The position numbers and the translations under genes are program-made. DNA of 32,000 nt from an uncultured Enterobacteriaceae bacterium (GTDB taxonomy: Bacteria; Verrucomicrobiota; Verrucomicrobiia; Opitutales; UBA953), in the NCBI GenBank assembly GCA_964590115.1, contig CAZPYE010000012.1, forward strand, positions 1-32,000. The letters are read 5' to 3'. Below the pieces are notes generated by a model that did no database searches, had not been told where the DNA came from, and saw only the letters and a list, made by a program, of their open reading frames with translations. This document shows positions 1-32,000 of the stretch, piece after piece (position 1 is the first letter of the stretch; each line of letters opens with the position of its first letter).

Positions 1-788
1 GAGAGAAGAGCCCGGCGATTCAGAATCGCGAGCGCTTCGTCGTGAAGTCGGGGATTGGCGGCGAGAACGGATTTGGCTCCGAGTGCGGCGTTCCCGTTCC
101 AGTCGGTAACTTTTGCTCCGGCGCCTTCGAGTATCGGCAAAAGCGGATACAAGTCCCACGGCGAAAGCACGGGATCCGCCATGATGTCCGCCCGCCCGGC
201 GGCGACCATCAGATACGCGTAGCAGTCGCCCCAGGTGCGGAAAAGGCGTGCTCGGTGCAAAAGCGCATTCCAGTCTTCGCCGGGATGCTCTGTCTCGCAA
301 TCAATGACGTCGGTGGTAAGCAGAAGAGCTTCTTTTACGGACGGCGTTTCGGAGACTTTCACGCGGCGCCCGTTGAGTTCGGCGGTTTTCCCGTCGCCGA
401 TAATGCGTTCCCGCGTAATCGGTTGGTCGATAACGCCGAGGCAGGGTTTTCCTTCGTGGAGCACGCCGAACAGGATGCCGTAAAGCGGCACACGCGAGAC
501 GAAGGACTTTGTCCCGTCAATCGGGTCGAGCGACCACACGAACTCCGCTTCGACGTTTTCGTTCCCGTATTCCTCGCCGATAATGCCGTGCCCGGGAAAT
601 TTTTCGTGAATCATCTCTCTCAGACGGCGTTCGCACTCTTTGTCTGCGACGGTTACGGGCGAGCCGTCCGGTTTGACTTCGATTGCCGTGTGTTCGAGCG
701 CGTGATAATCCGCCACAATGCGGCGCGCCGTATCGGCAAGCGTTCCCGCGAAGGCTTTTAGTTCGGTCAAATATTTTTCGGAAAGCAT
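1..788 (-). CDS. Inositol monophosphatase family protein (SuhB/HisN-like); C-terminus lies beyond the window edge
   Basis: Absent from the ORF track because it has no stop in the window. My manual translation of the minus strand from the ATG (complement of 786-788) gives MLSEKYLTELKAFAGTLADTARRIVADYH..FPGHGIIGEEYGNE..FVWSLDPIDGTKSFVSRVPLYG..WGDCYAYLMVAAGRADIMADPVLSPWDLYPLLPILEGAGAKVTDWNG. It carries the IMPase-family EE, DPIDGT and WD metal-site motifs. The listed + ORF 42-761 is its antisense shadow. Confidence 0.85.
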   Translation of the reverse strand, partial: MLSEKYLTELKAFAGTLADTARRIVADYHALEHTAIEVKPDGSPVTVADKECERRLREMIHEKFPGHGIIGEEYGNENVEAEFVWSLDPIDGTKSFVSRVPLYGILFGVLHEGKPCLGVIDQPITRERIIGDGKTAELNGRRVKVSETPSVKEALLLTTDVIDCETEHPGEDWNALLHRARLFRTWGDCYAYLMVAAGRADIMADPVLSPWDLYPLLPILEGAGAKVTDWNGNAALGAKSVLAANPRLHDEALAILNRRALL

Positions 789-863
789 AGGCAGAGCATC
801 AGGCAAAACGGGGTCGGTCGCGAACAAAAAAAATGAGATTCGGGAAAGCCGAGAGGGAGCGAA

Positions 864-1568
864 TTATTTCTTTTTCAGAATTTCCTCAAAGGAAAGTCCG
901 GACGCCTTCGTGAGCCCTTTAATCAGAATCCACAATGCGACGATGATAAAAACCATGCAGGGAAGCGTGATTACCGGCCACGATAGCGCAAGCATTGTTC
1001 CGATTTCCTCGTTAAATGCCGCACTGTCAACCTCCGGATCCGTATGCACGACGACTCGGGCGAGCCCGAAATTCAGAATCGTGCTCAAAAAGAACGAGGC
1101 GATAAGAACGCGGGAACAGCGCTTCAGCGTCGCGTCGAGCAGGGCGCCGTTCCCGAGCCGTGCGACGGCGGATTCAATCGCGGGAACGTCAAAAACCGCA
1201 TCGTTGAACAGAAACACACGAATCATTTTCCGCGAAAAAATCATAACGACAGCAATAAAGAGCGGAATCGCCGCTTCCTTGACGGCTACCCACGCCGGCG
1301 AAAGCCGGAAAAGCCCGATTCCTCCGGTAAGGAGCGTTCCCGCGAAGCCGATTACCGAAATCCAATTCGTTTTCCCCCGTTGCCGAAAATCCCGAAAAAA
1401 ATAGACAATCGGGAACGCCAGCGCGACAACGAGAATGATGCCGGGCGAAACCTGAAAATCAAAACGTTCGGCAATCTTTCCCCCCTTCGTCAGAATAAGG
1501 GCGGGAACAACGATGTTCATCAGCAGGCTGACGAACATATTTTCTTTTTTCTCTGGGCGCGAAGGCAT
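864..1568 (-). CDS. Multi-pass inner-membrane protein, function unassigned (YciB/septation-protein-A-like or VC0807-like by recollection only)
   Basis: 234-aa ORF with about six hydrophobic helices (NIVVPALIL, GIILVVALAFPIVYFF, ISVIGFAGTLLTGGIGLF, AAIPLFIAVVMIF, VLIASFFLSTILNFGL, PCMVFIIVALWILI). Its start overlaps the stop of the upstream gene by 1 nt, suggesting an operon. The start may instead be M11 at 1538. Confidence 0.7.
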   Translation of the reverse strand: MPSRPEKKENMFVSLLMNIVVPALILTKGGKIAERFDFQVSPGIILVVALAFPIVYFFRDFRQRGKTNWISVIGFAGTLLTGGIGLFRLSPAWVAVKEAAIPLFIAVVMIFSRKMIRVFLFNDAVFDVPAIESAVARLGNGALLDATLKRCSRVLIASFFLSTILNFGLARVVVHTDPEVDSAAFNEEIGTMLALSWPVITLPCMVFIIVALWILIKGLTKASGLSFEEILKKK

Positions 1569-2155
1569 CAGGCATCAAATTTTTGTGAACCGTATTTCGC
1601 CTTGTGCGCGGCGGAAACAACCAGATATTTCTCCGCCCAAACAAGCAGACCCTTACGTTCTTCCTCGGTGAGCGTTTTTTTAATTTTGGCGGGACAGCCG
1701 ACGACCATGGAGCCGGCGGGGACTTTCATGCGCGGCGGAACGACGGCACCTGCCGCAACGATACTGCCTTCTCCGATTTCCGCACCGTCAAGAATCGTTG
1801 AACTCATGCCGATTAGACAGCCGTCGCCGATTTTACAGCCGTGAAGCATCGCACGATGACCGACGGTTACGAACTTTCCGACGACCGTGGGCAAGTCGTC
1901 CGCCAAGTGAATACATACGCCGTCCTGAATGCTTGAACCTTCTCCGATAACGATTTCTTCAATGTCGGCGCGGAGAATTGCGCCGGGCCAAATGTTGGCG
2001 TTTGCGCCGATTTTGACGGCACCGAGCAATATGGCTCCGTGGGCGACGTAGGCGGAGGCGTCCACCTGCGGTGTGCGGGAAAGGAATTTGTCGAGACGCG
2101 CCTGTGCGGCACTGATTTGTGTTTCCGTCATAGTTTTGAAAAGTTCGAGTGCCAA
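1568..2155 (-). CDS. Gamma carbonic anhydrase family / left-handed beta-helix (hexapeptide repeat) protein
   Basis: 195 aa with repeated [LIV]-G-x-x-x-x hexapeptide turns (VKIGANANIWPGAILRAD, IVIGEGSSIQDGVCIH, VTVGHRAMLHGCKIGDGCLIGMSSTILDGAEIGEGSIVAAGAVV), typical of YrdA/PaaY-type gamma-CA-like proteins. The N-terminal 8-25 residues are uncertain. Confidence 0.88.
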   Translation of the reverse strand: MALELFKTMTETQISAAQARLDKFLSRTPQVDASAYVAHGAILLGAVKIGANANIWPGAILRADIEEIVIGEGSSIQDGVCIHLADDLPTVVGKFVTVGHRAMLHGCKIGDGCLIGMSSTILDGAEIGEGSIVAAGAVVPPRMKVPAGSMVVGCPAKIKKTLTEEERKGLLVWAEKYLVVSAAHKAKYGSQKFDA

Positions 2156-2281
2156 GCGTAATGTTCCCGCGGGAACGCGGGCAAACAGAAATTTCGGGAA
2201 CGCTCCGCATCTCTCCGGAAAGGAGAGCCGTCACCAAAATTGAAATTTACTTTATGCCGCTTTGTTTGAAAAATCGGAGGC

Positions 2282-2959
2282 ATGAAAAATATTTCCCAAA
2301 ATAAAAAGGGCGGATTGACCGAAAGTTTGCGCAAGGCGTTCGTAACGGGGCTTTTGTTTTGTCTTCCGGTTTCTCTGACGATTTACATTATCGTGTGGCT
2401 TGTAAACTTTCTGGCGTCTCCCGCTCGGGGCGGATTGAAATATTTTCTGCATTTTTTCGGCGTGGAGCTTCCGGCGACGCCGTTGGGTAACGCCGTCGTA
2501 ACAATTGCCGCCGCACTGATTGTCGCCGTGGCGATTGCTTTTATCGGGTTCGTTTCACGAAATCTTTTCGGACGCTTTTTCATCGGTTTGCTCGAAAAGT
2601 TGCTCAACAGGCTTCCGATGGTCCGCTCGATTTATTCGGCGATAAAACAAATTATCGATACGTTTTCCGTGGGCGGCAAGGACGAGACCTTCAGCCGTGC
2701 GGTTCTGGTGGAATTTCCCCGCCGGGAATGTTGGACCGTAGGATTTCTCACGCACGAAGGCGAAACGGAGTTTTCCCGGCTTGCGGGAACGCCGCTCGTG
2801 CACGTTTTTGTGCCGACGACGCCGAATCCGACCGGCGGCTACATGATTCTCGTTCCCGCGAATGAAATAAAGCTGCTCGACGTTTCCGTTGCCGACGCAA
2901 TGAAGATGATTGTTTCCGGCGGCGCCTTAATCCCCGAAGAACTGGCGGAGAAATCCTGA
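2282..2959 (+). CDS. DUF502 family membrane protein
   Basis: 225 aa. Two N-terminal TM helices (LLFCLPVSLTIYIIVWLV, VVTIAAALIVAVAIAFIGF) are followed by a conserved region (PMVRSIYSAIKQI..VLVEFPR..WTVGF.T..VFVPTTPNPTGGY..VP), which matches the DUF502 layout. A GGAGG Shine-Dalgarno lies 5 nt upstream of the ATG. Confidence 0.85.
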   Translation: MKNISQNKKGGLTESLRKAFVTGLLFCLPVSLTIYIIVWLVNFLASPARGGLKYFLHFFGVELPATPLGNAVVTIAAALIVAVAIAFIGFVSRNLFGRFFIGLLEKLLNRLPMVRSIYSAIKQIIDTFSVGGKDETFSRAVLVEFPRRECWTVGFLTHEGETEFSRLAGTPLVHVFVPTTPNPTGGYMILVPANEIKLLDVSVADAMKMIVSGGALIPEELAEKS

Positions 2960-3717
2960 TGAATCTCGTTGTTCTCGAAAGCTCGGAAACCGGAATTCTT
3001 CCTGCGGGAACACCTGAGGCGGAGCATCTGTTGCAAGTCTTGAAAGTCGCCCCGGGAAGCACCTTCTGGTGCGGCGTCAAAAACGGCATCCGGGGGCTGG
3101 CGACGGTTTCCGGCATTTCGGCATCCGGAGACATTTCGTTTTCCGTCGAATGGGAACGCGCACCGGCGCTTGCTCTGCCTCCCGTGCGTCTGGCGATCGG
3201 GCTTTCGCGCCCGCAGACGATGAAGAAAATTTTCGCGCTTGCGTCGGAAATCGGCTGTTCCCGAATTGATGTTTTTAAAAGCGAGAAGGGCGATCCCGCC
3301 TATGCGAAAAGCTCTCTTTGGCAGCCCGGCGACGGAACTTTTTCGGAGATTTTAAAAAAGTCCGCCGAGCAAACTTGCGTTCCCGCGATTCCGCAATATC
3401 GCCTGTATCGTTCGCTTGAAGATTTCTTAGAAGAAAATTCCCGTTGCGCAGAGAATGAAAACCGGGTTGCACTCGATGTTTATGCTTCGGAAAAGTCTCT
3501 GGGAGACATTGCCGTTTCGGGCGGGCGGGAAACGATTCTTGCAATAGGCTCCGAGCGCGGGTGGACGGATTCCGAACGCGCCTTACTCAAAGAGAACGCG
3601 TTCAAATTTGCCCATCTCGGGGAGCGCGTTCTGCGCGTGGAAACCGCCGTATCCGTTGCGCTTTCCGTGGCACTTTCAAAAATCGGTTTTTGGACACCGC
3701 ACAAACCGCTCAATTGA
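2959..3717 (+). CDS. rsmE: 16S rRNA (uracil1498-N3)-methyltransferase
   Basis: 252 aa. It has a PUA-like N-terminus and the SPOUT C-terminal signature ILAIGSERGWTDSE..LGERVLRVETAVSVAL, which is characteristic of RsmE. The start overlaps the DUF502 stop (TGATG). Confidence 0.85.
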   Translation: MNLVVLESSETGILPAGTPEAEHLLQVLKVAPGSTFWCGVKNGIRGLATVSGISASGDISFSVEWERAPALALPPVRLAIGLSRPQTMKKIFALASEIGCSRIDVFKSEKGDPAYAKSSLWQPGDGTFSEILKKSAEQTCVPAIPQYRLYRSLEDFLEENSRCAENENRVALDVYASEKSLGDIAVSGGRETILAIGSERGWTDSERALLKENAFKFAHLGERVLRVETAVSVALSVALSKIGFWTPHKPLN

Positions 3718-3736
3718 GCAGCGCAACCGCTTTTTT

Positions 3737-4699
3737 TTAGAAGCGGATTCCGCCCTGAATGAAAAACGCGAGGGACGGATCCGTCGTGAATTTTTCCTCC
3801 GTCTTATGCCCGTCCCGGTATTGCCGAAATTCCGACCATGCATGGAGCGAAACTCCCGCACTCAGAAAAAGATTTTTCGAGAGATTCCACGTTCCCGCAA
3901 CCGTTACGGGAACGCTTTCGCAACGATACGCTCCGCTTTTTCCGGAATATGGCGCAGAGGCACCGCGTTCTTCTCCGACGGCGAAACTCGACGATTCGTA
4001 AGAAACGGAAAAATCGACAAGGAATTTTTCTTCGCCGCTCGTATCCCATGTCAGAGTCAGACCGTTGAGCGCCCGCAAATTCCAATTCGGTCGGATACGC
4101 CAGTCGAAGGAAAACAACGGCACGAAATACCAGCGTTCCCGATCGATGCGATACATCGCCGCCGCACCGAGCATTACGGAAGTCGTTTCCGAAAAGTATT
4201 GCTTCCCGGCAAAGCCGATCATTCCGCTCGCGCCGTCGGAAAGCGCCGTTCCGTCTTCCGCCGCGAGCGCACCCGACAGGACGGCGACAGCCGCCGCTCC
4301 GGTCGCCGGGTTGATGAATTCCTGATAGGAGCTCATGCGAAGCGAGTCCGTGTGCGAAAACGGAGTCGCGGCACCTCCGGAGAAGCGGTAGTCCGTGCGG
4401 CGGTAGTCAAGCGACGTAAGGGCGATGCGTGTTTTTTCCGGATGGACGTAGCGCCACGAACATCCCGTTCCGTAGGTCGAATACGCCATTTTCCCGCCCG
4501 ATGAAAGACTCGCAGGCAAACTTTGCGCATAGTAGCCGTAAAAGGGCGTTATCAGGTGTTCCCGCACGCGAATCTGTTCCCGTGCCGGCGTGTAAATTTT
4601 CCCCGTTTCCGCTTCGCTTGCCGCGAATCCGGGATTTCCTGCAGACAGCATCAGCGGCGGGAACACGGCGAGGAATATTGCGAAATTAAATACCTTCAT
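3737..4699 (-). CDS. Putative outer-membrane beta-barrel protein (no family assigned)
   Basis: I trimmed the ORF track entry 3737-4885 to the internal ATG at 4699. That start gives a signal peptide (MKVFNFAIFLAVFPPLMLSAGNPGFAA), followed by alternating hydrophobic/polar strands rich in Y/G/S/T and a C-terminal aromatic residue (..GGIRF), as in OM beta-barrels. Confidence 0.65.
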   Translation of the reverse strand: MKVFNFAIFLAVFPPLMLSAGNPGFAASEAETGKIYTPAREQIRVREHLITPFYGYYAQSLPASLSSGGKMAYSTYGTGCSWRYVHPEKTRIALTSLDYRRTDYRFSGGAATPFSHTDSLRMSSYQEFINPATGAAAVAVLSGALAAEDGTALSDGASGMIGFAGKQYFSETTSVMLGAAAMYRIDRERWYFVPLFSFDWRIRPNWNLRALNGLTLTWDTSGEEKFLVDFSVSYESSSFAVGEERGASAPYSGKSGAYRCESVPVTVAGTWNLSKNLFLSAGVSLHAWSEFRQYRDGHKTEEKFTTDPSLAFFIQGGIRF

Positions 4700-4741
4700 T
4701 TTTATATATGGCGGACGATAAAAAATAAAAAAGTATAGCGG

Positions 4742-4775
4742 CGCAATAAAAATTAGAACATATGTTTTTATTGCG
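4742..4775. repeat. Perfect 11-bp inverted repeat (CGCAATAAAAA - 12 nt - TTTTTATTGCG) in the divergent OMP/tatA intergenic region
   Basis: Read directly: arms at 4742-4752 and 4765-4775. A third GCAATAAAA copy lies at about 4808-4816. It could be an operator or a hairpin, but no function is known. Confidence 0.5.
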
Positions 4776-4825
4776 TTTTCCTTTTCACGGAATCCGGGCG
4801 TGCGGGAGCAATAAAATAAAATGCG

Positions 4826-4854
4826 TTGCCGCTTATATGGGGAGAATCCATAAT
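4826..4854 (+). promoter_or_regulatory. Candidate sigma70-type promoter for tatA (TTGCCG - 17 nt - CATAAT) behind an A/T-rich tract
   Basis: Hexamers read at 4826-4831 and 4849-4854, with AATAAAATAAAAT immediately upstream. The tatA ATG is at 4876. Confidence 0.3.
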
Positions 4855-4875
4855 TCGCGGCACATTTATACGGCA

Positions 4876-5175
4876 ATGCAAACATTATCCCACACAGAAA
4901 TTTTAGCGGCGGTAACGCCGACGACCGTTATCATTGTTCTGGTTTTAATTCTGCTGATTTTCGGCGGGAAAAAGCTTCCGGAACTCGCCCGCGGGCTCGG
5001 GAAAGCCCGGCGCGAATTTAAGCGCGCGAGCGAAGAAATCGACGAAGAGGTAAAATCCGCCATCGAAGCCGACGAGCGCGCCGACGTGCGCCGCAAACTC
5101 ATCGAAGAAGAGGAGCGCAAAAAAATCCGCGAACGTATCGAAGCGGAAGAGCGGGCGAAATTGGAAAACAAATAA
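4876..5175 (+). CDS. tatA: Sec-independent (twin-arginine) translocase subunit TatA/E
   Basis: Trimmed from ORF 4762-5175 to the ATG at 4876. The product [49 protein letters not shown] has the single TM helix, the FGxxKLPE hinge and the amphipathic helix of TatA, then a charged E/R/K tail. Confidence 0.85.
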
Positions 5176-5217
5176 AACTCGACCGGCAAGGAACAGAAGT
5201 AAAAAAAGATTTTTTGC

Positions 5218-5601
5218 GTGGAAGACGAAGCGCTTTTCAAAGAAATTCTAAATGCCGCTTTTTCGGTTCATTCCGCATTGGGTCCGGGGGTGTTGGAGTC
5301 CGCTTATGCTCGATGTTTGGCAGTAGAACTTGCGGAACGCGGAATTTCTGCCGAAGCCGAGGTCATTTTGCCGATAAATTATCGTTCCCGCAAGATTGAG
5401 TCCGCTTTTCGAGTTGATTTGCTTGTAGAAAAACGAATTGTCGTCGAACTCAAGTCCGTCGCGGAATTAACGCCGCTTCACCTTGCCCAAGTATTGACTT
5501 ATTTAAAACTTCTAAATCTGCCTTCCGGCTTGCTCATCAATTTTAATACTGTACGGTTAAAAGACGGAATTCGTCGTATTTTTAATAATTTTTCCAAGTA
5601 A
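5218..5601 (+). CDS. GxxExxY protein (PD-(D/E)XK nuclease-fold family)
   Basis: 127 aa with a GTG start. It contains the name-giving motif G-V-L-E-S-A-Y (LGPGVLESAYARCL) and the conserved D-L-L-V-E..VELK core seen in this family. Confidence 0.85.
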   Translation: MEDEALFKEILNAAFSVHSALGPGVLESAYARCLAVELAERGISAEAEVILPINYRSRKIESAFRVDLLVEKRIVVELKSVAELTPLHLAQVLTYLKLLNLPSGLLINFNTVRLKDGIRRIFNNFSK

Positions 5602-5648
5602 AAATCCTTCTTTTTCTTTTGTTCCTTTCCGGTTAAATAAAAACTCCC

Positions 5649-10345: not shown

Positions 10346-10604
10346 TCAAACAGAGGCGCCTGATACCCGCAAGCCGCAAAGAGCAGGCGGGCATTCGGAG
10401 TCGTCTCTTCCTCAGAACTTTGCGAAAGAACGGGGATGTGCCGCCGTGTTTTCCGGAACGAGCTTACGTGTTTTTGTCGGGCGGGAACGCGTTCCGGCGA
10501 TTTTTTTCGGATAAAAAGAGGCGGTTTCGTTGAGGATTCGAGTTTTTGGATGGAAAAAGAAGGGCATCGGGAGTATCGTTTGTGCCTCATTTTTCTTTTT
10601 AGCT

Positions 10605-12374: not shown

Positions 12375-12406
12375 TTTTCTTTTTCGGCGGGAACGCCGGA
12401 ACATCG

Positions 12407-17791: not shown

Positions 17792-17820
17792 TTCTAACGG
17801 AGTTTCTTCCCTAAAAAAAG

Positions 17821-20191: not shown

Positions 20192-20220
20192 TTGACGAAG
20201 CGAATCCGTGTTTTTACGAT
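20192..20220 (+). promoter_or_regulatory. Candidate sigma70-type promoter for comM (TTGACG - 17 nt - TACGAT)
   Basis: Hexamers at 20192-20197 and 20215-20220, with AAATTGAAAT immediately upstream. Only 7 nt separate the -10 from the ATG at 20228, which implies a leaderless transcript. Confidence 0.35.
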
Positions 20221-20227
20221 TCCGTCA

Positions 20228-22823: not shown

Positions 22824-24463
22824 CAATGAAAAACGGTGCCTCGTCTTATTTTTCGATGCTGGTAACGGCGGCGGGAACGTCGGGCTCGCGCCTGCTCGGA
22901 CTCGTGCGCGACCAGCTGATAGCGGGATTTTTCGGGACGGGGAGTTTCGCGGCGGCGTTCATCATCGCATTTCAAATCCCGAATCTCTTTCGCAGGCTTT
23001 TAGGCGAGGGCGCTTTGACGTCCGCACTTATGCCGGTGATGACACAGGAGAAAAAAAACGGCGGGAACGCTCGCGCATTTTCTTTCTTTAATCTCGTCGT
23101 TTGCCGCGTCGCTCCGTGGATGCTGTTGCTGACGGCGGGGTTTTGCCTTGTCGCAATCGCAATTGCCGTTGCTCCGGAGGCTTGGATAAAGTTCGGCGCG
23201 GAAATTGCGGGTGCCGACGGCGATATTACGCGTCATCGGCTTGCCGCGTGGCTGACGGCACTTTGTATGCCGTATATGCCGATGATTTGTATCGCCGCCG
23301 TATTTACCGCCGGGCTGAACATGCTCGGGAAATTTACCGTGACTGCGCTCAGTGCGATTTGGCTGAATTTGGCGATGATTTTTTCGCTGGGCGTTTTGGG
23401 ATACCAATTCGGAGAAACGCCTACGGAACGCGTGGTGTGGCTCTGTTCGGGTGCGTTGCTCGGAGGCGCATTACAACTGTGCGTTCCCGCGTTTGCGCTT
23501 TGGCGGGAAGGCTGGCGTTTTGAATGGACCCGAGAGCGCACGGCGGCGTGGGCGGATTTAAAAGCGATGTTCTTGCCCGCCGTCGTCGGCGCGGGCATCA
23601 ATCAGATAAACATTTTTCTTACGCGTTTTCTGGCATTCGCCCTCGAAGAACAGGCTTTGTCCGTTTATTACTACGCCAACCGCATCGTGGAAATTCCGGT
23701 CGGGATTTTTACGGTAACCGTTACGACGGTGGTTTTTCCGCTTTTGGCAAAACATGCGGCGGACGGGAACACCCGGGAGCTGGGAGGAACGTTTGCGCAC
23801 GGAATGCGCCTGATTTACGCGATTAACGTTCCCGCGACGGTCGGGATTATTGCGCTCGCGTTCCCGTTAGTGAAACTGTTTTTCGAACACGGAAACTTTA
23901 CGGCGGCAGACACGGCGGCGACGGTGCCCGTGCTTTGGGTTTTCGCGCTTGCCGTTCCGTTTTATGCCGTGAGCGGTCTGGTCGGGCGCGCACTTAATTC
24001 GCTCAAAGACACGAAGACACAGACGAAGACGGCGGGGCTCGCTTTCGGATTGAATTGCGTGCTCGCACCTTCGTTGGGCTGGTTTTTCGGCGCCGTCGGA
24101 CTCGCCGCCGCGAATCTGATTTCCGCCGCCGTGCAATGCGTGGTGCTCTACGTCGTTCTGCGCAGGCGGGAACGTGCGTTTTCCGCAGAATCCGTTAGCG
24201 GCGCATTCTTTAAAACATTGGTCGCAGCGGCACTGATGGGGGCATTTACGCTGGGCGCATGGTATTGTGTCTTCGAGAAACTTTTTGACGGAGGAAACCT
24301 GTTCGGGACGAATACGGGAATTTTGGCGGCGTTGCTCGTCGTCGTGCCTGTCGCGGTCGGGGTTTATTTTGCGTTTCTCAAACTTTTCCGCTACCCGGAG
24401 TGCGACGAGATTCTCGGCTTGCTTCTGCGAAAGTTTAAGATCGGGAAACGGACCCGCTCGTAA
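22820..24463 (+). CDS. murJ: Lipid II flippase MurJ (MviN)
   Basis: Trimmed from 22682 to the ATG at 22820, which overlaps the amidase stop (ATGA). It has the MurJ N-terminal signature SRLLGLVRDQLIAGFFGTG..AFIIAFQIPNLFRRLLGEGAL and about 14 TM helices. Confidence 0.9.
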   Translation: MTMKNGASSYFSMLVTAAGTSGSRLLGLVRDQLIAGFFGTGSFAAAFIIAFQIPNLFRRLLGEGALTSALMPVMTQEKKNGGNARAFSFFNLVVCRVAPWMLLLTAGFCLVAIAIAVAPEAWIKFGAEIAGADGDITRHRLAAWLTALCMPYMPMICIAAVFTAGLNMLGKFTVTALSAIWLNLAMIFSLGVLGYQFGETPTERVVWLCSGALLGGALQLCVPAFALWREGWRFEWTRERTAAWADLKAMFLPAVVGAGINQINIFLTRFLAFALEEQALSVYYYANRIVEIPVGIFTVTVTTVVFPLLAKHAADGNTRELGGTFAHGMRLIYAINVPATVGIIALAFPLVKLFFEHGNFTAADTAATVPVLWVFALAVPFYAVSGLVGRALNSLKDTKTQTKTAGLAFGLNCVLAPSLGWFFGAVGLAAANLISAAVQCVVLYVVLRRRERAFSAESVSGAFFKTLVAAALMGAFTLGAWYCVFEKLFDGGNLFGTNTGILAALLVVVPVAVGVYFAFLKLFRYPECDEILGLLLRKFKIGKRTRS

Positions 24464-24933: not shown

Positions 24934-26565
24934 ATGAAAGAAATCCCTATCTTTGACCTCGCAGAAAAACTCGGAATCGACGGAAACTTCGTCGAGCCTT
25001 ACGGACGTGATAAAGCGAAGATTTCGCTCGACGCGCTGAAGAATCCGCCCAAGCGGGGGAAACTGATTCTCGTTTCCGCGATTACGCCGACACCCGCCGG
25101 GGAAGGTAAAACGACAACGTCCATCGGACTTGCCCAGGGATTTAAAAAAATCGGGAAAAGTGCTGCGCTCGCATTGCGTCAACCGTCAATGGGGCCGGTT
25201 TTCGGTCGCAAGGGCGGTGCCACCGGCGGCGGAAAAAGCACCGTTCAGCCGGCAACGGAAATCAATTTACAGTTTACCGGAGACTTCCACGCCATCACTT
25301 CGGCACACAACCTTCTCGCGGATGCCATCGACAACCGCCTCTATTTCCGCAACACGCGTCTCGATGCACGCCGCGTAACGTGGAAACGCGTTCTCGACAT
25401 GAACGATCGCGCCCTGCGCAGTGTAATTGTCGGATGCGGCGGGAACGGCGTGCCGCGCGAAACGGGCTTTGACATCACCGTCGCCTCCGAAATTATGGCG
25501 ATTCTTTGCCTCGCGCAGAGCTATGACGACTTGCGCGCCCGTCTCAATAAAATGGTCGTCGGATTTGATGCGGAAAACAAACCCGTTTTCGCCGAAGAAA
25601 TCGGGGTTACGGGATCGCTTATGGCGATTTTAAAAGAGGCTCTTAAACCGAATTTGGTACAGAGTGTCGAAGGCGTTCCCGCGTTTATTCACGGCGGACC
25701 GTTTGCGAATATCGCCCAGGGATGCAACTCCGTCATCGCGACCAAAATGGCGATGAGTTACGCAGATTACGCCATTACGGAAGCGGGCTTTGCATTCGAC
25801 CTCGGCGGAGAAAAGTTCTTCGACATCAAATGTCGCACGGCGGGTTTTGCGCCGGATGCCGTCGTCATCGTCGCCACAATTCGCGCACTGAAAATGCATG
25901 GCGGACGCGGGCTTAAAGAGCTGACGGAGGCTGACGTTCCCGCCGTCGAACGCGGCTTGGAAAACCTCGCGGCACACATTGATTCCGCGAAAAAGTTTAA
26001 GCGCCCGATTGTCGTTGCCGTCAATCAGTTTCCGACGGACACGGAGGAGGAATTTTCCGCCGTCAAAAGCTTCTGCGCTTCGCAGAATGTGGCTTGCGCC
26101 GTGGCGAATGTCTTCGGGCAGGGCGGCGACGGAGCGACGGAGCTTGCCAAAGTCGTCGCGGCTGCGTGCTCGATTCCCTCTCCCGAGTTTGTTCCGATTT
26201 ATCCGCTCGACGTTCCCGTCGAAGAAAAGCTCAACGCGATAGCCCGTGAAATCTACGGGGCGGACGGCGTTTCGATTTCCGCCAAAGCGAAAAAGAAGCT
26301 TGAAATGCTTGATCACGCGGGCGCATCCCGCCTGATGATCTGCATGGCGAAAACGCAGAATTCGATTTCCGACGATCCCTCCAAACTCGGACGTCCCCGC
26401 AATTTTACGATTTCCGTGCGCGACTTTGAAATCGCTTCCGGTGCAGGCTTCCTCGTTGCCCTCACGGGCGATATCATGCGTATGCCCGCTCTCCCGAAAG
26501 TCCCTTGCGCAGAGTCCATCGACCTCGATGCCGACGGGAACATCACCGGAATGCTCGGCGTATAA
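24934..26565 (+). CDS. fhs: Formate--tetrahydrofolate ligase
   Basis: 543 aa, with full-length resemblance to Fhs. Motifs include ITPTPAGEGKTTTSIGL, GGPFANIAQGCNSV and VATIRALKMHGG. Confidence 0.95.
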   Translation: MKEIPIFDLAEKLGIDGNFVEPYGRDKAKISLDALKNPPKRGKLILVSAITPTPAGEGKTTTSIGLAQGFKKIGKSAALALRQPSMGPVFGRKGGATGGGKSTVQPATEINLQFTGDFHAITSAHNLLADAIDNRLYFRNTRLDARRVTWKRVLDMNDRALRSVIVGCGGNGVPRETGFDITVASEIMAILCLAQSYDDLRARLNKMVVGFDAENKPVFAEEIGVTGSLMAILKEALKPNLVQSVEGVPAFIHGGPFANIAQGCNSVIATKMAMSYADYAITEAGFAFDLGGEKFFDIKCRTAGFAPDAVVIVATIRALKMHGGRGLKELTEADVPAVERGLENLAAHIDSAKKFKRPIVVAVNQFPTDTEEEFSAVKSFCASQNVACAVANVFGQGGDGATELAKVVAAACSIPSPEFVPIYPLDVPVEEKLNAIAREIYGADGVSISAKAKKKLEMLDHAGASRLMICMAKTQNSISDDPSKLGRPRNFTISVRDFEIASGAGFLVALTGDIMRMPALPKVPCAESIDLDADGNITGMLGV

Positions 26566-26727
26566 TCAAAACCGCGTCGAATCACGGGCGGCGGCGGGTT
26601 TCCGGCTTGCACACCGTCGCCGTTCCCGCGGAGCCGCTCTTTTCCCGGCACGGGAATCCTCTCGGCACGCAATTTGCAAGACGTTTCCCGCAAATACTTT
26701 CCGTAATTTTTACCAAGAAAAAAAGCA

Positions 26728-27309: not shown

Positions 27310-27327
27310 CAACGGCCGCTGATTTTC

Positions 27328-28689
27328 ATGGCAAAAGACGAACCCAAGTGTGCGTTTTGCGGGCGTTCCCGCAGCGATGTCGGCATTTTGATTATCGGAC
27401 CGGACGGCGCGAATATTTGCGACGAATGCGCAAAGCTTTGCGTCGAAATGACGGAAAATCAGTCTGTGCGGAAAAATTCCGCCGCAGAACCGATGTCTCC
27501 CGCAAAGGTCGCTTCCACCGCGTCAAAGATGCGGACGGAGAAGGCTCCTGATGCCGGGCCGCTGACACCGATCGCGCTCAAAAAGCCCTCTGAAATTCGC
27601 GCCGTCCTCGACGATTACGTCATCGGACAGGATCAGGCAAAAAAAGTTTTGTCCGTTGCGGTTTATAATCACTACAAGCGCTTGAACGACAAGCTTTTCG
27701 GGAATTCCGAAAACGGCACGGACTCCGTTCCCGCCGAGGGCACAATCGCGGACGAAGACCTCAAAAACGTCGAAGTAGAAAAAAGCAACATCCTCGTTAT
27801 CGGGCCGACGGGTTGCGGGAAAACGTTGCTTGCAAGAACTCTCGCACGCATCCTCGACGTGCCTTTTGCCATCGCCGATGCGACAACGCTGACACAGGCG
27901 GGCTACGTCGGCGAAGACGTGGAAAATATCCTCGTTCGCCTTTTGCAGGCGGCGGACGGAGACGTGAAACGTGCCGAAACGGGTATTGTTTACGTGGACG
28001 AAATTGACAAAATCGGGCGAAAAGGCGATTCCGCCTCGCTTACGCGAGACGTTTCCGGAGAGGGCGTTCAACAGGCTCTCCTGAAGATTATCGAAGGCTC
28101 CCTTTGCAATATTCCTCCGAACGGCGGACGAAAGCATCCCGACCAGAAATATGTGCAGATCGACACTTCGAATATCCTTTTCATTTGCGGAGGCGCCTTT
28201 GTCGGATTGGAACGCATTATCGGCGCACGAATCGGCAATAAATTCCTCGGTTTCGACACTTCTTCCGAATCCGGGCGCGAGCTTTCAGCCGAACAAATCA
28301 TGGCGGAGCTTCAACCGGAAGATCTTTTCGAATTCGGAATGATTCCCGAATTCATCGGACGCCTGCCTATGGTTTCCGCGCTTTCGCAGCTGCGTTCCAA
28401 GGACTTGGAACACATTCTTACCCGTCCGAAAAACGCACTCACAAAGCAGTATCGAAAACTTTTTGCGATGGAAGGCGTTGAGCTTGTTTTCGAGGATGAT
28501 GCCGTCTCCGCCGTCGCCGAAAAAGCAATTACGCTCGGAACGGGGGCCCGCGGACTGCGTTCCATTCTTGAAAAGCTCATGCTCGACACGATGTATGAAC
28601 TTCCGAATCGCGGGAACGCAAAGCGCGTTGTGATTACGGCGGATGTCGTTGCCGGGAAAACCTCCCCGCAGGTTGAAATTCAGAAATAA
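27328..28689 (+). CDS. clpX: ATP-dependent Clp protease ATP-binding subunit ClpX
   Basis: 453 aa. It has an N-terminal C4 zinc module (CAFCGRS..CDEC), Walker A GPTGCGKT, the GYVG pore loop, Walker [10 protein letters not shown] and sensor motifs. It lies immediately downstream of clpP. Confidence 0.95.
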
Positions 28690-28712: not shown

Positions 28713-31040
28713 TTAACCGACATCCGCAGGATCTACGTCGAGCAGGTCGATGACATCCTGCGGCCACGGGAACGCGTTGCGCAACTGCATGAGCTGTGAG
28801 CTTGCCCGGACGACGTTGTCGCAAAAATACCAAATGTGAAAACGATAGTTGTCTTGGATTTTTTCCGTCGGACACGGCGCGGGACCGCGAATCTCGCAAA
28901 GGTCCGGCGCGTTTTTTTCCAAAAATTCAGTCCAGCGGTCGGCGGTTTCCTCAACGAGCTCCGCGTTCCGTCCTCTGAAAAGATGGCGGATGACGTGGCG
29001 TAGCGGCGGATATCCGAATTCCTTTCGCCGTTCCAGTTCGTCTTCGAGAAAATCGTCGAAATCCGCCCGTTTTGCGAACTGAATCGGAGCCGCATGCGGG
29101 GTGAACGTCTGAACGAGCACTTCGCCATCGAGGTCTCCGCGCCCCGCACGTCCGGCGACTTGGACAAGGAGTTGGAAGGTGCGCTCCGCCGACCGAAAGT
29201 CGGGAACGTGCAGAGACAGGTCCGCGTCGAGAATTCCGACCAGCGTAACCCGCGGAAAGTCCAAGCCCTTAGCAATCATTTGCGTTCCGAGCAGAATGTC
29301 GATTTTCCCTGCACGGAAATCTCCGAGAATCTTTCGAAACTCATTTTTTTTCGACATGGTATCGGCATCCAGGCGAACGGCAACGGCATCGGGAAAGATG
29401 TTTTTGAGGATTTCTTCCGCACGCTGTGTGCCGAATCCCCGCCGGCGAATTTTGTCGGATCCGCATACGGGGCAACGGGAAGCGGCAGGCTCGACGTGAT
29501 CGCAAAGATGGCAACGCATCAGTTCTTCCGTGCGGTGGTAGGTGAGAGCCGAAGAACAGTGCGGGCAGGTCAGAACGTGTCCGCACTCCGGGCAAATAAG
29601 GGCTCGCGAATAACCCCGCCGGTTCAGAAACAGGATACTTTGCTCCCGACGGTCGAGTCGTTCCCGCAGTGCATCAATGAGTGTTCTGGAAAAAGTGGTT
29701 TGTCCGCTCGTGTGGAGTATTTCCCGGCGCATATCGATGATTTTCATCGGCGGGAACGCGCGGTCGTCCACGCGTTTCGTAATGCGGTTGAGGCGGTATT
29801 TCCCGTTGCGGGCGTTGAAAAAGCTTTCCAGCGAAGGCGTTGCCGAGCCGAGAACGCAAACGGCATTGCAGAGATGCGCACGAAATACGGCGACGTCGCG
29901 TCCGTGGTAAAACGGGGTTTCTCCCTGTTTAAAAGAGGGCTCGTGCTCTTCGTCGACAACGATGAGTCGAAGTTTTTTCAGCGGGGCGAAAATTGCCGAT
30001 CGGGCACCCACCAGCAGGCGCGCTTCCCCTCGCGCCATCGACATCCACGCGTCGTAGCGTTCGCCGGAAGAAAGGTTGCTGTGCCAAACCACTATCGGTG
30101 TCGCGCAGTCGGACAGGCGGGAACGCAGACGCTCGACGGTTTGCGGCGTGAGTGCCACTTCGGGGACAAGAAAAATTGCGCTTCCGCCGTCTTCGAGAAC
30201 GCGCCGAATCGCGCCGATGTAAACTTCGGTTTTTCCGGACCCGGTAACGCCGTGGAGAAGGTGCGTGCGGAATTTGTTTTCGGAAAGGCTTTTTACAACG
30301 GAGTCAAGAGCCGCCTGTTGCTCTTCGTTGAGCGTCGGGGGAAGCGCGGGGACGGCGTTCCCGCGAGCACCGCCTTCAAAATCGTCGTCGTAGGCAAGGC
30401 GTGATTTCACCGAAATTTCTTCTTTGGCGATGCCTGCCAGAATAAGCGCGTCAATTACCGCCGCAGAGTAGGGAAGTGCGTTGCGGGGCACACCGGAGCG
30501 GGCGGCGTTCCCGCCCTTTTCCGGATGTTTTTCTGCGGAATTTTTCAGAAATTCATAAAGGGCTGCCTGTTTTTTGGCACGGCGGCGCAATTTTTCAAAG
30601 GCATCGGAAGAAAGTTCCCGGGAAAGAGAAACGTATTTTTGCGTAACGGGGCGAACTCCGCGTCTTACCGTGCCCGGTAAAATCGTCAGAAGAACACTGT
30701 TGAGCGGAGCCGCATAGTAGGCGGAAAGCCATTCGCAAAGCTTAAGCGTATCCGGCGTAAGGACGGGAACGTCGCAGCAAAGCTCGGTAATATCCCGTAT
30801 TTTTTTTGCCCAAGAGGGCGCGGGAACGGCATCTGTTTTCCAGATAATTCCGAAATTGATTCGCGAACCGAGCGGGATTTTTACGAGGCTTCCCCGAAAG
30901 GCTTTTCCGGAGAAATTCTCGGGAACGCGGTAGGTATAGGTGCGTCCGCCGCCGTCGAAGGGCATGACTTCGACAAAGGCGGCGGCATTCGTATTCGCGC
31001 ATTGTTGCGCGTTTGAAACTGTTTCCGGAAACCAGTCCAT
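28713..31040 (-). CDS. priA: Primosomal protein N' (replication restart helicase PriA)
   Basis: 775 aa with Walker A GVTGSGKT and a DEEH box (VVDEEHEPSFKQ). The Cys-rich zinc region is CPECGH..CPHC..CHLC..CPVC. Confidence 0.92.
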   Translation of the reverse strand: MDWFPETVSNAQQCANTNAAAFVEVMPFDGGGRTYTYRVPENFSGKAFRGSLVKIPLGSRINFGIIWKTDAVPAPSWAKKIRDITELCCDVPVLTPDTLKLCEWLSAYYAAPLNSVLLTILPGTVRRGVRPVTQKYVSLSRELSSDAFEKLRRRAKKQAALYEFLKNSAEKHPEKGGNAARSGVPRNALPYSAAVIDALILAGIAKEEISVKSRLAYDDDFEGGARGNAVPALPPTLNEEQQAALDSVVKSLSENKFRTHLLHGVTGSGKTEVYIGAIRRVLEDGGSAIFLVPEVALTPQTVERLRSRLSDCATPIVVWHSNLSSGERYDAWMSMARGEARLLVGARSAIFAPLKKLRLIVVDEEHEPSFKQGETPFYHGRDVAVFRAHLCNAVCVLGSATPSLESFFNARNGKYRLNRITKRVDDRAFPPMKIIDMRREILHTSGQTTFSRTLIDALRERLDRREQSILFLNRRGYSRALICPECGHVLTCPHCSSALTYHRTEELMRCHLCDHVEPAASRCPVCGSDKIRRRGFGTQRAEEILKNIFPDAVAVRLDADTMSKKNEFRKILGDFRAGKIDILLGTQMIAKGLDFPRVTLVGILDADLSLHVPDFRSAERTFQLLVQVAGRAGRGDLDGEVLVQTFTPHAAPIQFAKRADFDDFLEDELERRKEFGYPPLRHVIRHLFRGRNAELVEETADRWTEFLEKNAPDLCEIRGPAPCPTEKIQDNYRFHIWYFCDNVVRASSQLMQLRNAFPWPQDVIDLLDVDPADVG

Positions 31041-31231
31041 TTCTCTGCCGAAAAATGAAAATCGCGTTTCCCTTTGCTTGCAAGGTTTTACCGTTTCGCG
31101 TGTCGTATTGCGGGAACGCTGTCGCTAAGGTTCGGATTTTCATATCGAACTTTTCGAAAAAAAATCACAAAACGCTTTGCCGGTGCGGAATCCTGCAAGT
31201 TTTCATCGCGAAACCCGTTTTTTTTTTCAAT

Positions 31232-31260
31232 TTGCGGGACGCCGAAGAGTTTGGCAATAT
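31232..31260 (+). promoter_or_regulatory. Candidate sigma70-type promoter for dnaG (TTGCGG - 17 nt - CAATAT)
   Basis: Hexamers at 31232-31237 and 31255-31260, with TTTTTTTTTTCAAT upstream. 11 nt separate the -10 from the GTG at 31272. Confidence 0.4.
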
Positions 31261-31271
31261 TCCGCGTTTCC

Positions 31272-32000
31272 GTGCCCTTAATCACCAGAAGATCCATTGA
31301 CGAGATACGTTCCCGCGCCGACATCGTGGCGTTTATCGGGGACTATACGAGTTTGCGGCGTGCCGGAACGAAGTGGAAAGGGCTCAGCCCGTTCACGAGC
31401 GAAAACACGCCGTCGTTTTTTGTCGATCCCGAAAAAGGTTTTTACTACTGCTTCAGCACCGGACAGGGCGGAGACATCTTTAAGTTTCTGATGACTCGGG
31501 AAAACCTGACCTTCGGGGAATCCGTCGAACGGGTGGCGAAGCGCTTCGGAATTACCGTGGAGTATGAAAAGGGCGGAAGCGGCATCGATCGTTCCCTGCG
31601 CGGGGAGCTTTTCGACATCCATGAATTCGCGGTCGGATACTTCGTCGAAAAATTCAGGGAAAAAACACCTCTCGGCGAGCAAGTGCGCGAGTATTGGACA
31701 CGGGAACGCGGATTCGACACGGAGACGGCGGAGGTATTTCGCGTGGGTTTTTTGCCGCCGAACGGCTCACGAGCATTTGCCGAAGCGATGAAACGCAAAG
31801 GCTTCTCCTCGCGGGCACTGGCCGTATCGGGAATTTTTGTCGGGACGGAGCGCCTGCCCGAAAATCCGGAGATGTGGCGTTCCCGCTTTGAGGCGCGACT
31901 GATTATTCCGATTGCGGATATTCAAGGGCGGGTTATCGCATTTACCGCAAGGAAAATCCCCGGAATCACGCCGGACGACGGGCGAGGCATGAACGAGGCG
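31272..32000 (+). CDS. dnaG: DNA primase DnaG (N-terminal part; continues beyond the window end)
   Basis: Not in the ORF track because it has no stop in the window. My manual translation from the GTG at 31272 gives MPLITRRSIDEIRSRADIVAFIGDYTSLRRAGTKWKGLSPFTSENTPSFFVDPEKGFYYCFSTGQGGDIFKFLMTRENLTFGESVERVAKRFGI.., collinear with the DnaG zinc-binding domain and the start of the RNA polymerase domain. The frame is open from 31128. The only in-frame starts are TTG 31251 and GTG 31272, and the latter reproduces E. coli residue numbering. Confidence 0.85.
   Translation, partial: MPLITRRSIDEIRSRADIVAFIGDYTSLRRAGTKWKGLSPFTSENTPSFFVDPEKGFYYCFSTGQGGDIFKFLMTRENLTFGESVERVAKRFGITVEYEKGGSGIDRSLRGELFDIHEFAVGYFVEKFREKTPLGEQVREYWTRERGFDTETAEVFRVGFLPPNGSRAFAEAMKRKGFSSRALAVSGIFVGTERLPENPEMWRSRFEARLIIPIADIQGRVIAFTARKIPGITPDDGRGMNEA

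Follow-up and report, generated by a model that had tools for sequence, protein, structure and literature searches.

Gene content of the window

The stretch analysed in this report, hereafter the window, is 32 kb long (contig CAZPYE010000012.1, positions 1 to 32,000) and is scattered with copies of one octamer, CGGGAACG (reverse complement CGTTCCCG), which is referred to as the word. It is a real, clade-wide and apparently undescribed hyper-abundant DNA word. Pfam matches in the window identify a partial SuhB-like gene, a hexapeptide transferase, DUF502, RsmE, PDDEXK_3, DsbD, MntP, TruB, Dut, SulP, KdsB, KpsF, a Wzy-like protein, an MFS transporter, ComM/YifB, AmiC, MurJ, YhbY, FTHFS, ClpP, ClpX, PriA and the start of DnaG, along with several unknown genes. 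The inositol-monophosphatase/SuhB-like gene (3-785, minus strand) runs off the left end of the window, and the right end, from about 31302 (plus strand), is the start of the DnaG primase gene. An open reading frame listed at 42-761 on the plus strand is spurious, the real gene being the SuhB-like gene on the minus strand; the conclusions are unaffected. Scans of the window for tRNA genes and Rfam families found nothing.

Abundance and extent of the word

Exact search of both strands of the window located 98 copies, 45 on the plus strand and 53 on the minus strand. Identical figures had been obtained by manual counting in an earlier sequence-only reading of this DNA, which had also put about ten copies each in dsbD and priA (the exact numbers are 12 and 10). 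The word is the top 8-mer of the window by a wide margin, the next unrelated octamer being present in 26 copies. Dinucleotide-preserving shuffles (n = 100) yielded a mean of 3.7 copies and a maximum of 9, and the second-order Markov expectation is 5.7, corresponding to an observed/expected (O/E) ratio of 17. The letters of the word occupy 2.45% of the window. Its density, 3.06 per kb, had been judged comparable to or above that of known abundant words, and exceeds the range of 0.2-2.73 per kb reported for the highly iterated palindrome HIP1 (PMC5861425).

The signal extends slightly beyond the octamer. Of the 98 copies, 69% have G and 20% have A at position -1, and 59% have C at position +1, in line with the G/C preference noticed earlier. 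The full 10-mer GCGGGAACGC is found at 42 of the 98 copies, and the extended consensus is R-CGGGAACG-C. Both flanks are present in only 43% of the copies, and the two are statistically independent of each other. Outside the 10-mer, flanks are random, and the top 12-mer of the window reaches only 10 copies. The word is not its own reverse complement; the symmetry of the 10-mer is limited to the outer GCG....CGC. A weak mini-hairpin (3 bp/4 nt, -3 kcal/mol) can be formed by the 10-mer.

Neighbouring sequences were counted in 135 kb pooled from six genomes, which contain 446 copies of the word. Most one-off variants occur at 1-2 times expectation. Position-8 variants are strongly enriched, CGGGAACA reaching 8 times expectation. 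At the other extreme, AGGGAACG and GGGGAACG are depleted (1 copy each against 5-8 expected, O/E 0.1-0.2), and CGGGTACG has no copy in the pooled 135 kb.

Coding context and saturation of permissive sites

Coding DNA of the window (29.85 kb) holds 90 copies, or 3.0 per kb, and the spacers (2.15 kb) hold 8, or 3.7 per kb. The copies inside genes, 92% of the total, are in frame with orthologues. Relative to the direction of the gene, sense and antisense copies are equally numerous (45:45), and each orientation occurs in all three codon phases. Six peptide classes result (RER, AGT, xGNx, RSR, AFP and xVPx), as the sequence-only reading had described along with the intergenic copies. The most used frames are xVPx (27 copies) and AGT/TGT/SGT (20 copies).

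The same reading had proposed codon shuffling as a null model, and the excess survives it. Synonymous-codon shuffling within genes, which keeps the protein and the codon pool of each gene, yields 10.2 +/- 2.9 copies with a maximum of 19, and codon permutation yields 3.2 +/- 1.8, against 90 observed. Nor can a single favoured dipeptide in one frame account for the excess, since six frames and intergenic DNA are used. Word abundance is not a codon or peptide artefact.

Permissive sites were defined as peptide contexts that could encode the word, given suitable synonymous codons. In the window, the word is spelled at 90 of 112 such sites (80%), and the occupied fraction ranges from 69 to 93% in each of the six frame classes. 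Occupancy is 71-89% in the related loci L081, L082, L084 and L087 (described below), against 0-3% in the outgroup loci L088 and L089. Moreover, permissive peptides number 11-14 per 1000 codons in the clade and 4.9-6.4 in the outgroups. As they are about twofold commoner in the clade, the proteome itself must be shifted. Taken together, codon shuffles and the enumeration of permissive sites indicate that the excess stems from both codon choice and amino-acid sequence.

Copies are not evenly distributed among proteins. Strongly conserved proteins are word-poor, as ClpP and NrdB (0 per kb), ClpX (0.7-2.2), SecA (1.3), MetK (0.8) and SucCD (about 1). More variable proteins are word-rich, as DsbD (5.5 per kb), SNF2 (6.4) and Ham1 (11).

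Orientation, spacing and inverted pairs

The GC skew is positive in every 2-kb bin of the window, which therefore lies within one replichore. Neighbouring copies have the same orientation in 49 of 97 pairs, and orientations are likewise randomly interleaved in four other loci. Spacing between copies is Poisson-like, with a coefficient of variation (CV) of 0.83-1.17. The 45:53 split within one replichore excludes a replication-polar signal, which bears out the argument from near-equal strand use made in the sequence-only reading against Chi and the FtsK-orienting polar sequences (KOPS).

A few copies are paired. Of two inverted pairs proposed earlier, the one at 20777-20792 is a perfect 16-bp palindrome, CGTTCCCGCGGGAACG; the other, placed at 2163-2176, is only an imperfect pair, TGTTCCCG|CGGGAACG, spanning 2162-2177. 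A terminator with a word in one arm, which had been located at 17821-17847, corresponds to a hairpin at 17819-17849. Here, between convergent genes, the word is paired with a near-copy of itself, CGGAAACGC, and the structure is bordered by an A-run and a T-run; folded as single-stranded DNA, the hairpin has an energy of -10.8 kcal/mol. This hairpin and the palindrome at 20777-20792 are the only terminator-like structures of the window that contain the word. A terminator consensus scan of the window returned matches near chance level, few of which involve the word, and the clearest terminator, at 12406-12431, lacks it.

Distribution of the word in related genomes

Loci for comparison were fetched around PriA orthologues of graded identity to the window, and are mostly non-syntenic with it. 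The word is the top octamer in L081, L082, L084, L085, L087 and L154, about equally on both strands, at 1.8-4.7 per kb. The excess is hence not confined to the window, a possibility that the sequence-only reading had raised against itself: the word ranks first among 8-mers in six further assemblies. L081 and L082 share 87% PriA identity with the window and carry 2.5 and 4.0 copies per kb at 54% and 55% GC, respectively. Values are 4.2 per kb in L084 (79% identity, 64% GC), 1.8 in L085 (70%, 52% GC) and 3.7 in L087 (62%, 51% GC). L154, a random 5-kb metagenome contig to which PriA identity is not applicable, has 4.7 copies per kb at 62% GC.

Other loci lack the signal. L221 and L222, from metagenome-assembled genomes (MAGs) labelled 'Puniceicoccales' (PriA identity 61-62%, GC 54-59%), have 0.05 and 0.0 copies per kb, and L088 and the Cerasicoccus locus L089 have 0.04 each. 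No other hyper-abundant octamer was found in these four loci. None of 80 loci from a ClpX search (best identity 57%) exceeds 0.3 copies per kb; ClpX is too conserved a query, and these loci serve as negative controls only.

The word-positive genomes group together as one clade in a neighbour-joining tree of PriA. PriA relatives of the window are named 'Opitutales bacterium' and 'Candidatus Spyradosoma sp.' (Verrucomicrobiota, Opitutia), the genus Candidatus Spyradosoma having been named from chicken faeces. Judging from these sequences, the word-positive clade is a single Opitutales lineage of relatives of Candidatus Spyradosoma, with a GC content of 51-64%. Its organisms are known only as MAGs.

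A variant of the signal is found in L085 (1-13104) and L086 (1-4472). The top hexamer of the two loci is CGGGAA at 7.5 per kb, the highest CGGGAA density of the clade, and CG follows only 24 of 98 CGGGAA copies, position 7 being occupied by C in 42% and by A in 33% of them. L085/L086 represent a relaxed dialect with a common 5' core, in which specificity has drifted in one sub-lineage. L082 and L083 are 100% identical, leaving no strain polymorphism to compare, and are probably the same sample assembled twice.

Some low-GC genes are devoid of the word. In L087, a low-GC defence island (1-5839) adjoins core genes and includes GmrSD-N (39% GC), an unknown gene of 476 aa (31% GC) and a DpnII cassette that comprises two methyltransferases. 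GmrSD, the unknown gene and the DpnII endonuclease (3.5 kb) have 0 copies, compared with 3-11 per kb in the flanking core genes; the two methyltransferases carry three copies each. A gene for an IS200/IS605-type Y1 transposase (PF01797) at 4494-4949 of L082, with 38% GC, has one copy within word-rich surroundings.

Large-scale scans added a single member to the clade. Metagenomes searched with CGTTCCCGCGGGAACG gave at least 120 matches, nearly all of them chance occurrences in GC-rich soil contigs, and among the matches listed only L154 (5 kb) belongs to the word clade. Four contigs (L114, L148, L159 and L169) have two copies of the 16-mer each, 35-41 bp apart. In metagenome contig LXNJ01002470.1 (L115, 10 kb), a longer palindrome, ACGTTCCCGCGGGAACGT, occurs at 2358, 4898 and 9763; it comes from an unrelated GC-rich organism and looks like an intergenic repeat of the repetitive extragenic palindromic (REP) type, not the dispersed word. 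A scan of viral contigs with the 16-bp palindrome gave 11 matches, all due to chance, and scans with 10-mer pairs gave 57, mostly 18-bp tandem coding repeats, with no dispersed high density. Runs of the word with an exact 18-bp period occur in the IMG/VR contigs L240, L248, L237, L268, L262, L229 and L244. These are tandem six-codon repeats, located probably in structural or fibre-like genes, and are unrelated to the Opitutales signal.

Gain and conservation of word sites

The window was compared with L081 over the coding DNA of five syntenic genes (90% amino-acid identity). At four-fold degenerate sites, identity is 86% within the word and 55% outside it, and 13 of 18 word sites are common to the two genomes. 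In a codon alignment of PriA from ten genomes, there are 22 distinct word positions. Half of these (11/22) occur in a single genome, eight of them in the deep-branching L087. As many as 14 of the 22 need an amino acid that is absent from all four outgroups, while 5 lie on already permissive peptides and 3 in clade-specific insertions. Comparison of orthologues, suggested in the sequence-only reading, thus reveals gains that partly use permissive peptides and often proceed via amino-acid change.

One R-x-R site of PriA features RSR (CGTTCCCG) in most genomes and RER (CGGGAACG, in the opposite orientation) in L084. A local inversion was considered for this flip and rejected, as the outgroup residues vary (RSR, RAR, RQR and RAR); the flip is most simply read as independent resolution of an ancestral R-x-R site.

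Copies align with orthologues without indels, and must therefore have arisen by substitution rather than insertion. The PriA gains, the flip and the shared sites imply that the word-making force has been continuous since the origin of the clade. This force works by base substitution and overrides some protein-level preferences, and the word is both conserved beyond neutral expectation and still gained independently in deep branches.

Position of the individual copies

Individual copies are reported below with the strand of the word in the window and the encoded peptide, derived from the corrected gene map. The peptide stands for both sense and codon phase: sense CGGGAACG encodes RER in phase 0, AGT, TGT or SGT in phase 1 and xGNx in phase 2, and sense CGTTCCCG encodes RSR in phase 0, AFP or PFP in phase 1 and xVPx in phase 2.

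The SuhB-like gene has four minus-strand copies, at 89-96 (NGNA), 406-413 (RER), 560-567 (YGNE) and 741-748 (AGT). In unk234, minus-strand copies at 1148-1155 (LGNG) and 1335-1342 (AGT) alternate with plus-strand copies at 1181-1188 (DVPA) and 1410-1417 (AFP). Two intergenic plus-strand copies follow; that at 2170-2177 is the right arm of the imperfect pair, and that at 2195-2202 lies in a divergent promoter region. DUF502 carries the word at 2784-2791 (plus, AGT) and 2851-2858 (minus, LVPA), RsmE at 3378-3385 (minus, CVPA), and unk382 at 3890-3897 (minus, AGT), 3907-3914 (plus, SVPV) and 4134-4141 (minus, RER). A single copy, at 5383-5390 (minus, RSR), is found in the small gene of the PD-(D/E)XK nuclease superfamily (PF13366, PDDEXK_3; 5218-5601, plus strand). 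A PF13366 gene is present also in the word-negative Cerasicoccus locus L089 (5090-5518).

DsbD has plus-strand copies at 5695-5702 (AGT), 6100-6107 (TGT), 6539-6546 (SGNA), 7387-7394 (AGT) and 7417-7424 (AGT), and minus-strand copies at 5945-5952 (GVPA), 6235-6242 (AFP), 6395-6402 (VVPV), 6515-6522 (GVPA), 7151-7158 (CVPA), 7365-7372 (RSR) and 7700-7707 (AVPV). Further downstream, MntP has one at 8289-8296 (minus, TGT), TruB two at 8922-8929 (plus, PVPA) and 9091-9098 (minus, AGT), unk211 one at 9455-9462 (plus, AFP) and Dut one at 10033-10040 (plus, YVPA). SulP is preceded by an intergenic copy at 10482-10489 (plus) and contains copies at 11266-11273 (plus, AGT), 11326-11333 (minus, PFP) and 12297-12304 (minus, RSR); a further intergenic copy, at 12388-12395 (plus), lies directly upstream of the word-free SulP terminator hairpin mentioned above.

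KdsB carries the word at 12754-12761 (plus, SGT) and 13019-13026 (minus, GVPA). The KpsF gene has one plus-strand copy at 13493-13500 (TGT) and minus-strand copies at 13926-13933 (VVPA), 13973-13980 (AFP) and 14082-14089 (DVPA). The gene for the Wzy-like protein has plus-strand copies at 14455-14462 (RER), 14558-14565 (AGT) and 15674-15681 (AGT), and a minus-strand copy at 14905-14912 (RSR). Copies at 16688-16695 (minus, RSR) and 17622-17629 (plus, AGT) belong to the MFS gene. Between the convergent MFS and unk373 genes, the minus-strand copy at 17822-17829 forms the left arm of the hairpin at 17819-17849, which resembles a bidirectional terminator.

In unk373, one plus-strand copy at 17928-17935 (SVPV) is accompanied by minus-strand copies at 18200-18207 (RER), 18263-18270 (RER), 18429-18436 (RGNA) and 18937-18944 (TGT). 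Minus-strand copies at 19520-19527 (RGNA) and 19676-19683 (TGNA) lie in unk324, and one at 20017-20024 in the spacer between unk324 and ComM/YifB. The minus-strand genes at 17881-19002 and 19023-19997 are adjacent paralogues of unknown function (29% identity over 287 aa, E = 4e-41) with no Pfam match. They have in common the motif VENGRGNA(E/D)YY...HPDD, the RGNA of which is spelled by the word in both.

Seven copies, perfect palindrome included, fall in the ComM/YifB-type Mg-chelatase-like AAA+ gene (20192-21763, plus strand; Pfam ChlI, Mg_chelatase and Mg_chelatase_C). Those on the plus strand are at 20566-20573 (NGNV), 20785-20792 (RGNA, right half of the palindrome), 21464-21471 (RER), 21510-21517 (AGT) and 21681-21688 (AGT); those on the minus strand are at 20777-20784 (RSR, left half) and 21091-21098 (SVPG). 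AmiC follows with copies at 21914-21921 (minus, GVPA), 21990-21997 (plus, RER) and 22737-22744 (plus, RER). MurJ has three on the plus strand, at 22872-22879 (AGT), 23062-23069 (GGNA) and 24167-24174 (RER), and three on the minus strand, at 23482-23489 (CVPA), 23827-23834 (NVPA) and 23859-23866 (AFP). FTHFS carries the word at 25440-25447 (plus, GGNG), 25674-25681 (minus, GVPA), 25935-25942 (minus, DVPA) and 26211-26218 (minus, DVPV), and the FTHFS-ClpP spacer at 26621-26628 (minus).

Copies of ClpX are at 27364-27371 (minus, RSR), 27726-27733 (minus, SVPA) and 28611-28618 (plus, RGNA). PriA has seven on the plus strand, at 28767-28774 (AFP), 29201-29208 (HVPD), 29751-29758 (AFP), 30118-30125 (RSR, the site at which L084 has RER in the opposite orientation), 30764-30771 (DVPV), 30821-30828 (AVPA) and 30920-30927 (RVPE), and three on the minus strand, at 29659-29666 (RER), 30356-30363 (RGNA) and 30506-30513 (GGNA). 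The divergent region between PriA and DnaG contains the last intergenic copy, at 31111-31118 (plus), and the start of DnaG contains copies at 31308-31315 (minus, RSR), 31701-31708 (plus, RER) and 31878-31885 (minus, RSR).

Runs of A are also unusually common for a window with 54% GC (GAAAAA, 134 copies; AAAAAA, 128; AAAAAAA, 50), and the same is observed in L085 and L087.

A possible self tag spread by biased uptake

The data require a process that is orientation-independent, acts at the level of duplex DNA, is lineage-specific and evolvable in specificity, and biases fixation towards the word. The sequence-only reading had listed DNA uptake or self-recognition, motif-specific repair, gene conversion or methylation, and nucleoid-protein binding as candidate functions. 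The data fit the whole class of orientation-independent duplex-DNA processes, with a DUS-like character added by the lineage limit, the dialect, the conservation of sites and their independent gain. The word is denser than any described DNA uptake sequence (DUS) or HIP1, and the function that we infer for it is as follows. R-CGGGAACG-C would be a lineage-specific 'self' word of one gut Opitutales clade, recognised in duplex DNA, whichever way it is oriented, by a protein specific to the clade. A fixation bias favouring word-bearing alleles would spread the word chromosome-wide, one base substitution at a time. As its most likely source, conspecific DNA would be taken up more readily when it carries the word, and would then be integrated by homologous recombination, which is the mechanism of DUS and uptake signal sequences (USS), now also proposed for HIP1.

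By analogy with DUS/USS, we tentatively favour such a tag, without regarding it as established or even probable. The reader protein, the process of DNA uptake and transformation, and the natural competence of these bacteria are all putative. Biased uptake is favoured because of the excess of the word, its saturation of permissive sites, strand symmetry, restriction to a clade, the dialect, the persistence of the word-making force, the distribution among genes and the existence of precedents, as DUS/USS and HIP1 are both linked to transformation. The L085/L086 variant, in particular, resembles DUS dialects (bioRxiv 10.1101/2025.10.24.684340).

Several observations weigh against biased uptake. 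The sequence features that support it would be just as expected under in-situ selection or under any fixation bias that depends on a reader. In its distribution the word resembles HIP1 more than DUS: genic and spacer densities are similar (3.0 and 3.7 per kb), a DUS-like terminator bias is missing, and structures consisting of a hairpin plus a T-run hold only about 2 of the 98 copies. Being 3-4 times denser than DUS/USS, with 80% saturation, the word would require a very strong or long-acting drive. Word-bearing columns of PriA are about as conserved as the others (0.56 vs 0.60, p = 0.24). To our knowledge, no verrucomicrobium is known to be naturally transformable, and the literature search found no paper on natural transformation in Verrucomicrobia. 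About 150 kb of clade DNA revealed no genes for competence or pilins save one of the ubiquitous ComM/YifB type, and no prepilin-like N-termini. In some competent bacteria, homologues of ComM help transforming DNA to integrate, but the family is found almost everywhere, so that its presence in the window is weak context for competence.

Alternative explanations

A function exerted in situ on the chromosome is possible, if unlikely. The word would then be the binding or modification site of an abundant clade-specific protein, under weak selection per copy, as favoured for HIP1 by Xu et al. Candidates, none of them likely, include a nucleoid-structuring protein, an orphan or Type IIG/III/BREX (bacteriophage exclusion)-like adenine methyltransferase acting on GGGAAC, and Dnd-type phosphorothioation. 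Density, the similar level in coding and non-coding DNA, spread by substitution and conservation across genomes all match the picture of HIP1 (PMC5861425), and orientation independence fits the recognition of duplex DNA. Selection on approximately 10^4 sites (a genome total obtained by extrapolation), strong enough to override codons at 80% of permissive sites and amino acids at 14 of 22 PriA positions, would nevertheless be demanding, and the spacing is random, not regular (CV about 1), although the 10-90 kb periodicity reported for HIP1 exceeds the reach of a 32-kb window. With regard to the candidates, the word contains GAAC/GTTC, the known core motif of Dnd phosphorothioation, and BREX and Type III systems use six-base asymmetric m6A motifs. 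However, restriction-linked motifs are normally avoided in genomes rather than enriched, and no methyltransferase or dnd gene adjoins the word in the loci examined, except for the GATC-type DpnII cassette of L087. A ratchet of motif-directed repair or gene conversion, in which a nickase or mismatch enzyme resolves near-cognate sites to the word independently of uptake, appears rather improbable. Such a scheme is already in the HIP1 literature, Elhai having proposed a ratchet of methylation-coupled mismatch repair. Near-saturation and the continued independent gains are compatible with a conversion bias that affects the whole of the resident DNA, the absence of the word from low-GC, probably recently acquired genes fits slow amelioration, and the depletion of AGGGAACG and GGGGAACG and the lack of CGGGTACG are as directional conversion at particular positions would give. 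Against this, most one-off variants stand at 1-2 times expectation and CGGGAACA at 8 times, as plain mutational decay predicts. We know of no repair system with 8-10 bp asymmetric specificity that acts on all mismatch types, and Vsr-type repair produces only modest enrichment. Xu et al. read the conservation of HIP1 sites as an argument against neutral replenishment by biased repair, in favour of weak selection, though a strong conversion bias would mimic selection. More doubtful still is the specific proposal that novel conversion machinery, namely a clade-specific reader or nickase perhaps coupled to GAAC/GTTC modification, writes R-CGGGAACG-C, which would then not be an uptake tag. It is just as doubtful that such a system combines an asymmetric 8-10-bp target with the ability to saturate 80% of permissive contexts and to reshape proteins.

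Two further explanations have almost no probability left. A polar signal, whether for recombination, like Chi with RecBCD/AddAB, or for segregation, like KOPS with FtsK, might be suspected from the over-representation of an octamer that is frequent in the genome-maintenance genes PriA, ComM/YifB and DnaG. Chi and KOPS are strongly co-oriented with replication and far less dense; the word is split 45:53 and interleaved within one replichore, with 49 of 97 neighbours in the same orientation, and four other loci behave likewise. Strand symmetry within a replichore effectively refutes this explanation. A by-product of codon, dipeptide or CpG/dinucleotide bias, or a dispersed mobile repeat of the REP or miniature inverted-repeat transposable element (MITE) kind, is equally remote. 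Uneven use of frames (xVPx and AGT/TGT/SGT prevail) and the 10-mer mini-hairpin would be in keeping with it. Both versions are ruled out by the shuffles and the orthologue alignments: shuffles that keep protein, codon usage or dinucleotides yield 3-10 copies against 90-98, conservation ends at 10 bp with no 12-mer above 10 copies, and orthologues align without indels. Six frames and intergenic DNA are used, and outgroups of similar GC content have none of the excess.

Significance of the word

Hyper-abundant genomic words are rare. DUS, USS and HIP1 have been described, and each revealed self-DNA recognition by bacteria; the word would provide a further, independent case, in a different phylum and in uncultured gut commensals. 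It is the strongest imprint of this kind known to us, the word being present about 3 times per kb and at 80% of permissive sites, with a measurable shift of protein sequences. Should it be an uptake signal, natural transformation would be expected to be frequent and species-specific in a gut lineage in which it had not been suspected, and an exact DNA tag would be at hand for genetic tools in these bacteria. Otherwise, a so far unknown system of sequence-specific repair, modification or chromosome organisation is indicated. Since word-positive genomes and their word-negative sisters share about 60% PriA identity and a similar GC content, the gene of the presumed reader should be findable by phylogenetic profiling. 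The word may also be used as a marker for binning and for detecting horizontal transfer in the clade.

Comparison with known systems

The literature searches turned up no publication that deals with CGGGAACG or with a signal of this type in Verrucomicrobiota, in agreement with the sequence-only reading, to which no described element with this sequence was known. Searches for the word itself returned primer matches only, and searches on Spyradosoma, abundant octamers and competence in Opitutales returned nothing relevant.

The closest parallels are with DUS (Neisseriaceae, AT-GCCGTCTGAA dialects) and USS (Pasteurellaceae, AAGTGCGGT). Like these, the word is short, non-palindromic and present in very many copies, equal on both strands, lineage-restricted and endowed with a dialect. 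It likewise occurs in genes in several frames, at an amino-acid cost, is occasionally inverted-paired at gene ends, and is missing from some probably acquired genes, though not from the two methyltransferases of the L087 island. DUS/USS density is about 0.8-0.9 per kb; the word is 3-4 times denser, and differs from both in sequence and phylum. DUS and USS are non-palindromic and balanced between the strands, come in dialects within the lineages to which they are specific, and are recognised by ComP or ComN; about half of their copies lie in terminators (bioRxiv 10.1101/2025.10.24.684340). In contrast, about 2% of word copies are in terminator-like hairpins, and spacers are not enriched over genes. 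DNA uptake-enhancing sequences take up to about 2% of a genome, accumulate in permissive regions and are depleted in recently acquired DNA (bioRxiv 10.1101/2025.10.24.684340); the word makes up about 2.5% of the DNA. DUS and USS have a receptor (ComP/ComN), competence genes and an uptake bias, whereas the word is known here from sequence alone.

HIP1 (GCGATCGC), a highly iterated palindrome found in cyanobacteria, is also an octamer. Its frequency of 0.2-2.73 per kb, 16-317-fold over second-order Markov expectation (PMC5861425), compares with 1.8-4.7 per kb and an O/E ratio of 17 for the word. HIP1 spreads by substitution and is conserved between genomes (PMC5861425). The word similarly occurs in genes and spacers alike, spreads by substitution without indels, has lineage variants, and is conserved at its sites beyond neutral expectation in the coding DNA compared. 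HIP1 is now suspected of a role in transformation, which it is reported to enhance in a methylation-dependent manner (bioRxiv 10.64898/2026.06.24.733823). The word differs from HIP1 in being non-palindromic and free of known palindromic methyltransferase sites, in having no known cognate methyltransferase and in occurring in Verrucomicrobiota.

Other systems are more distant. Chi (GCTGGTGG and analogues), KOPS and architecture-imparting sequences (AIMS) are over-represented 7-8-mers as well, but are skewed to the leading strand and about tenfold rarer, while the word shows no polarity within a replichore. Very-short-patch footprints of Vsr/Dcm and the ratchet of Elhai share with the word the gain of one sequence over its one-off neighbours, some position-1 variants being depleted; very-short-patch effects are, however, small and concern 4-5-bp palindromes, and no similar effect is known for an asymmetric 8-10-mer such as the word. 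Conservation that stops at 10 bp and a 92% share of genic copies set it apart from REP and MITE repeats. Nothing of the kind is known in Verrucomicrobiota, and the word joins the asymmetry and dialects of DUS/USS with the coding saturation of HIP1.

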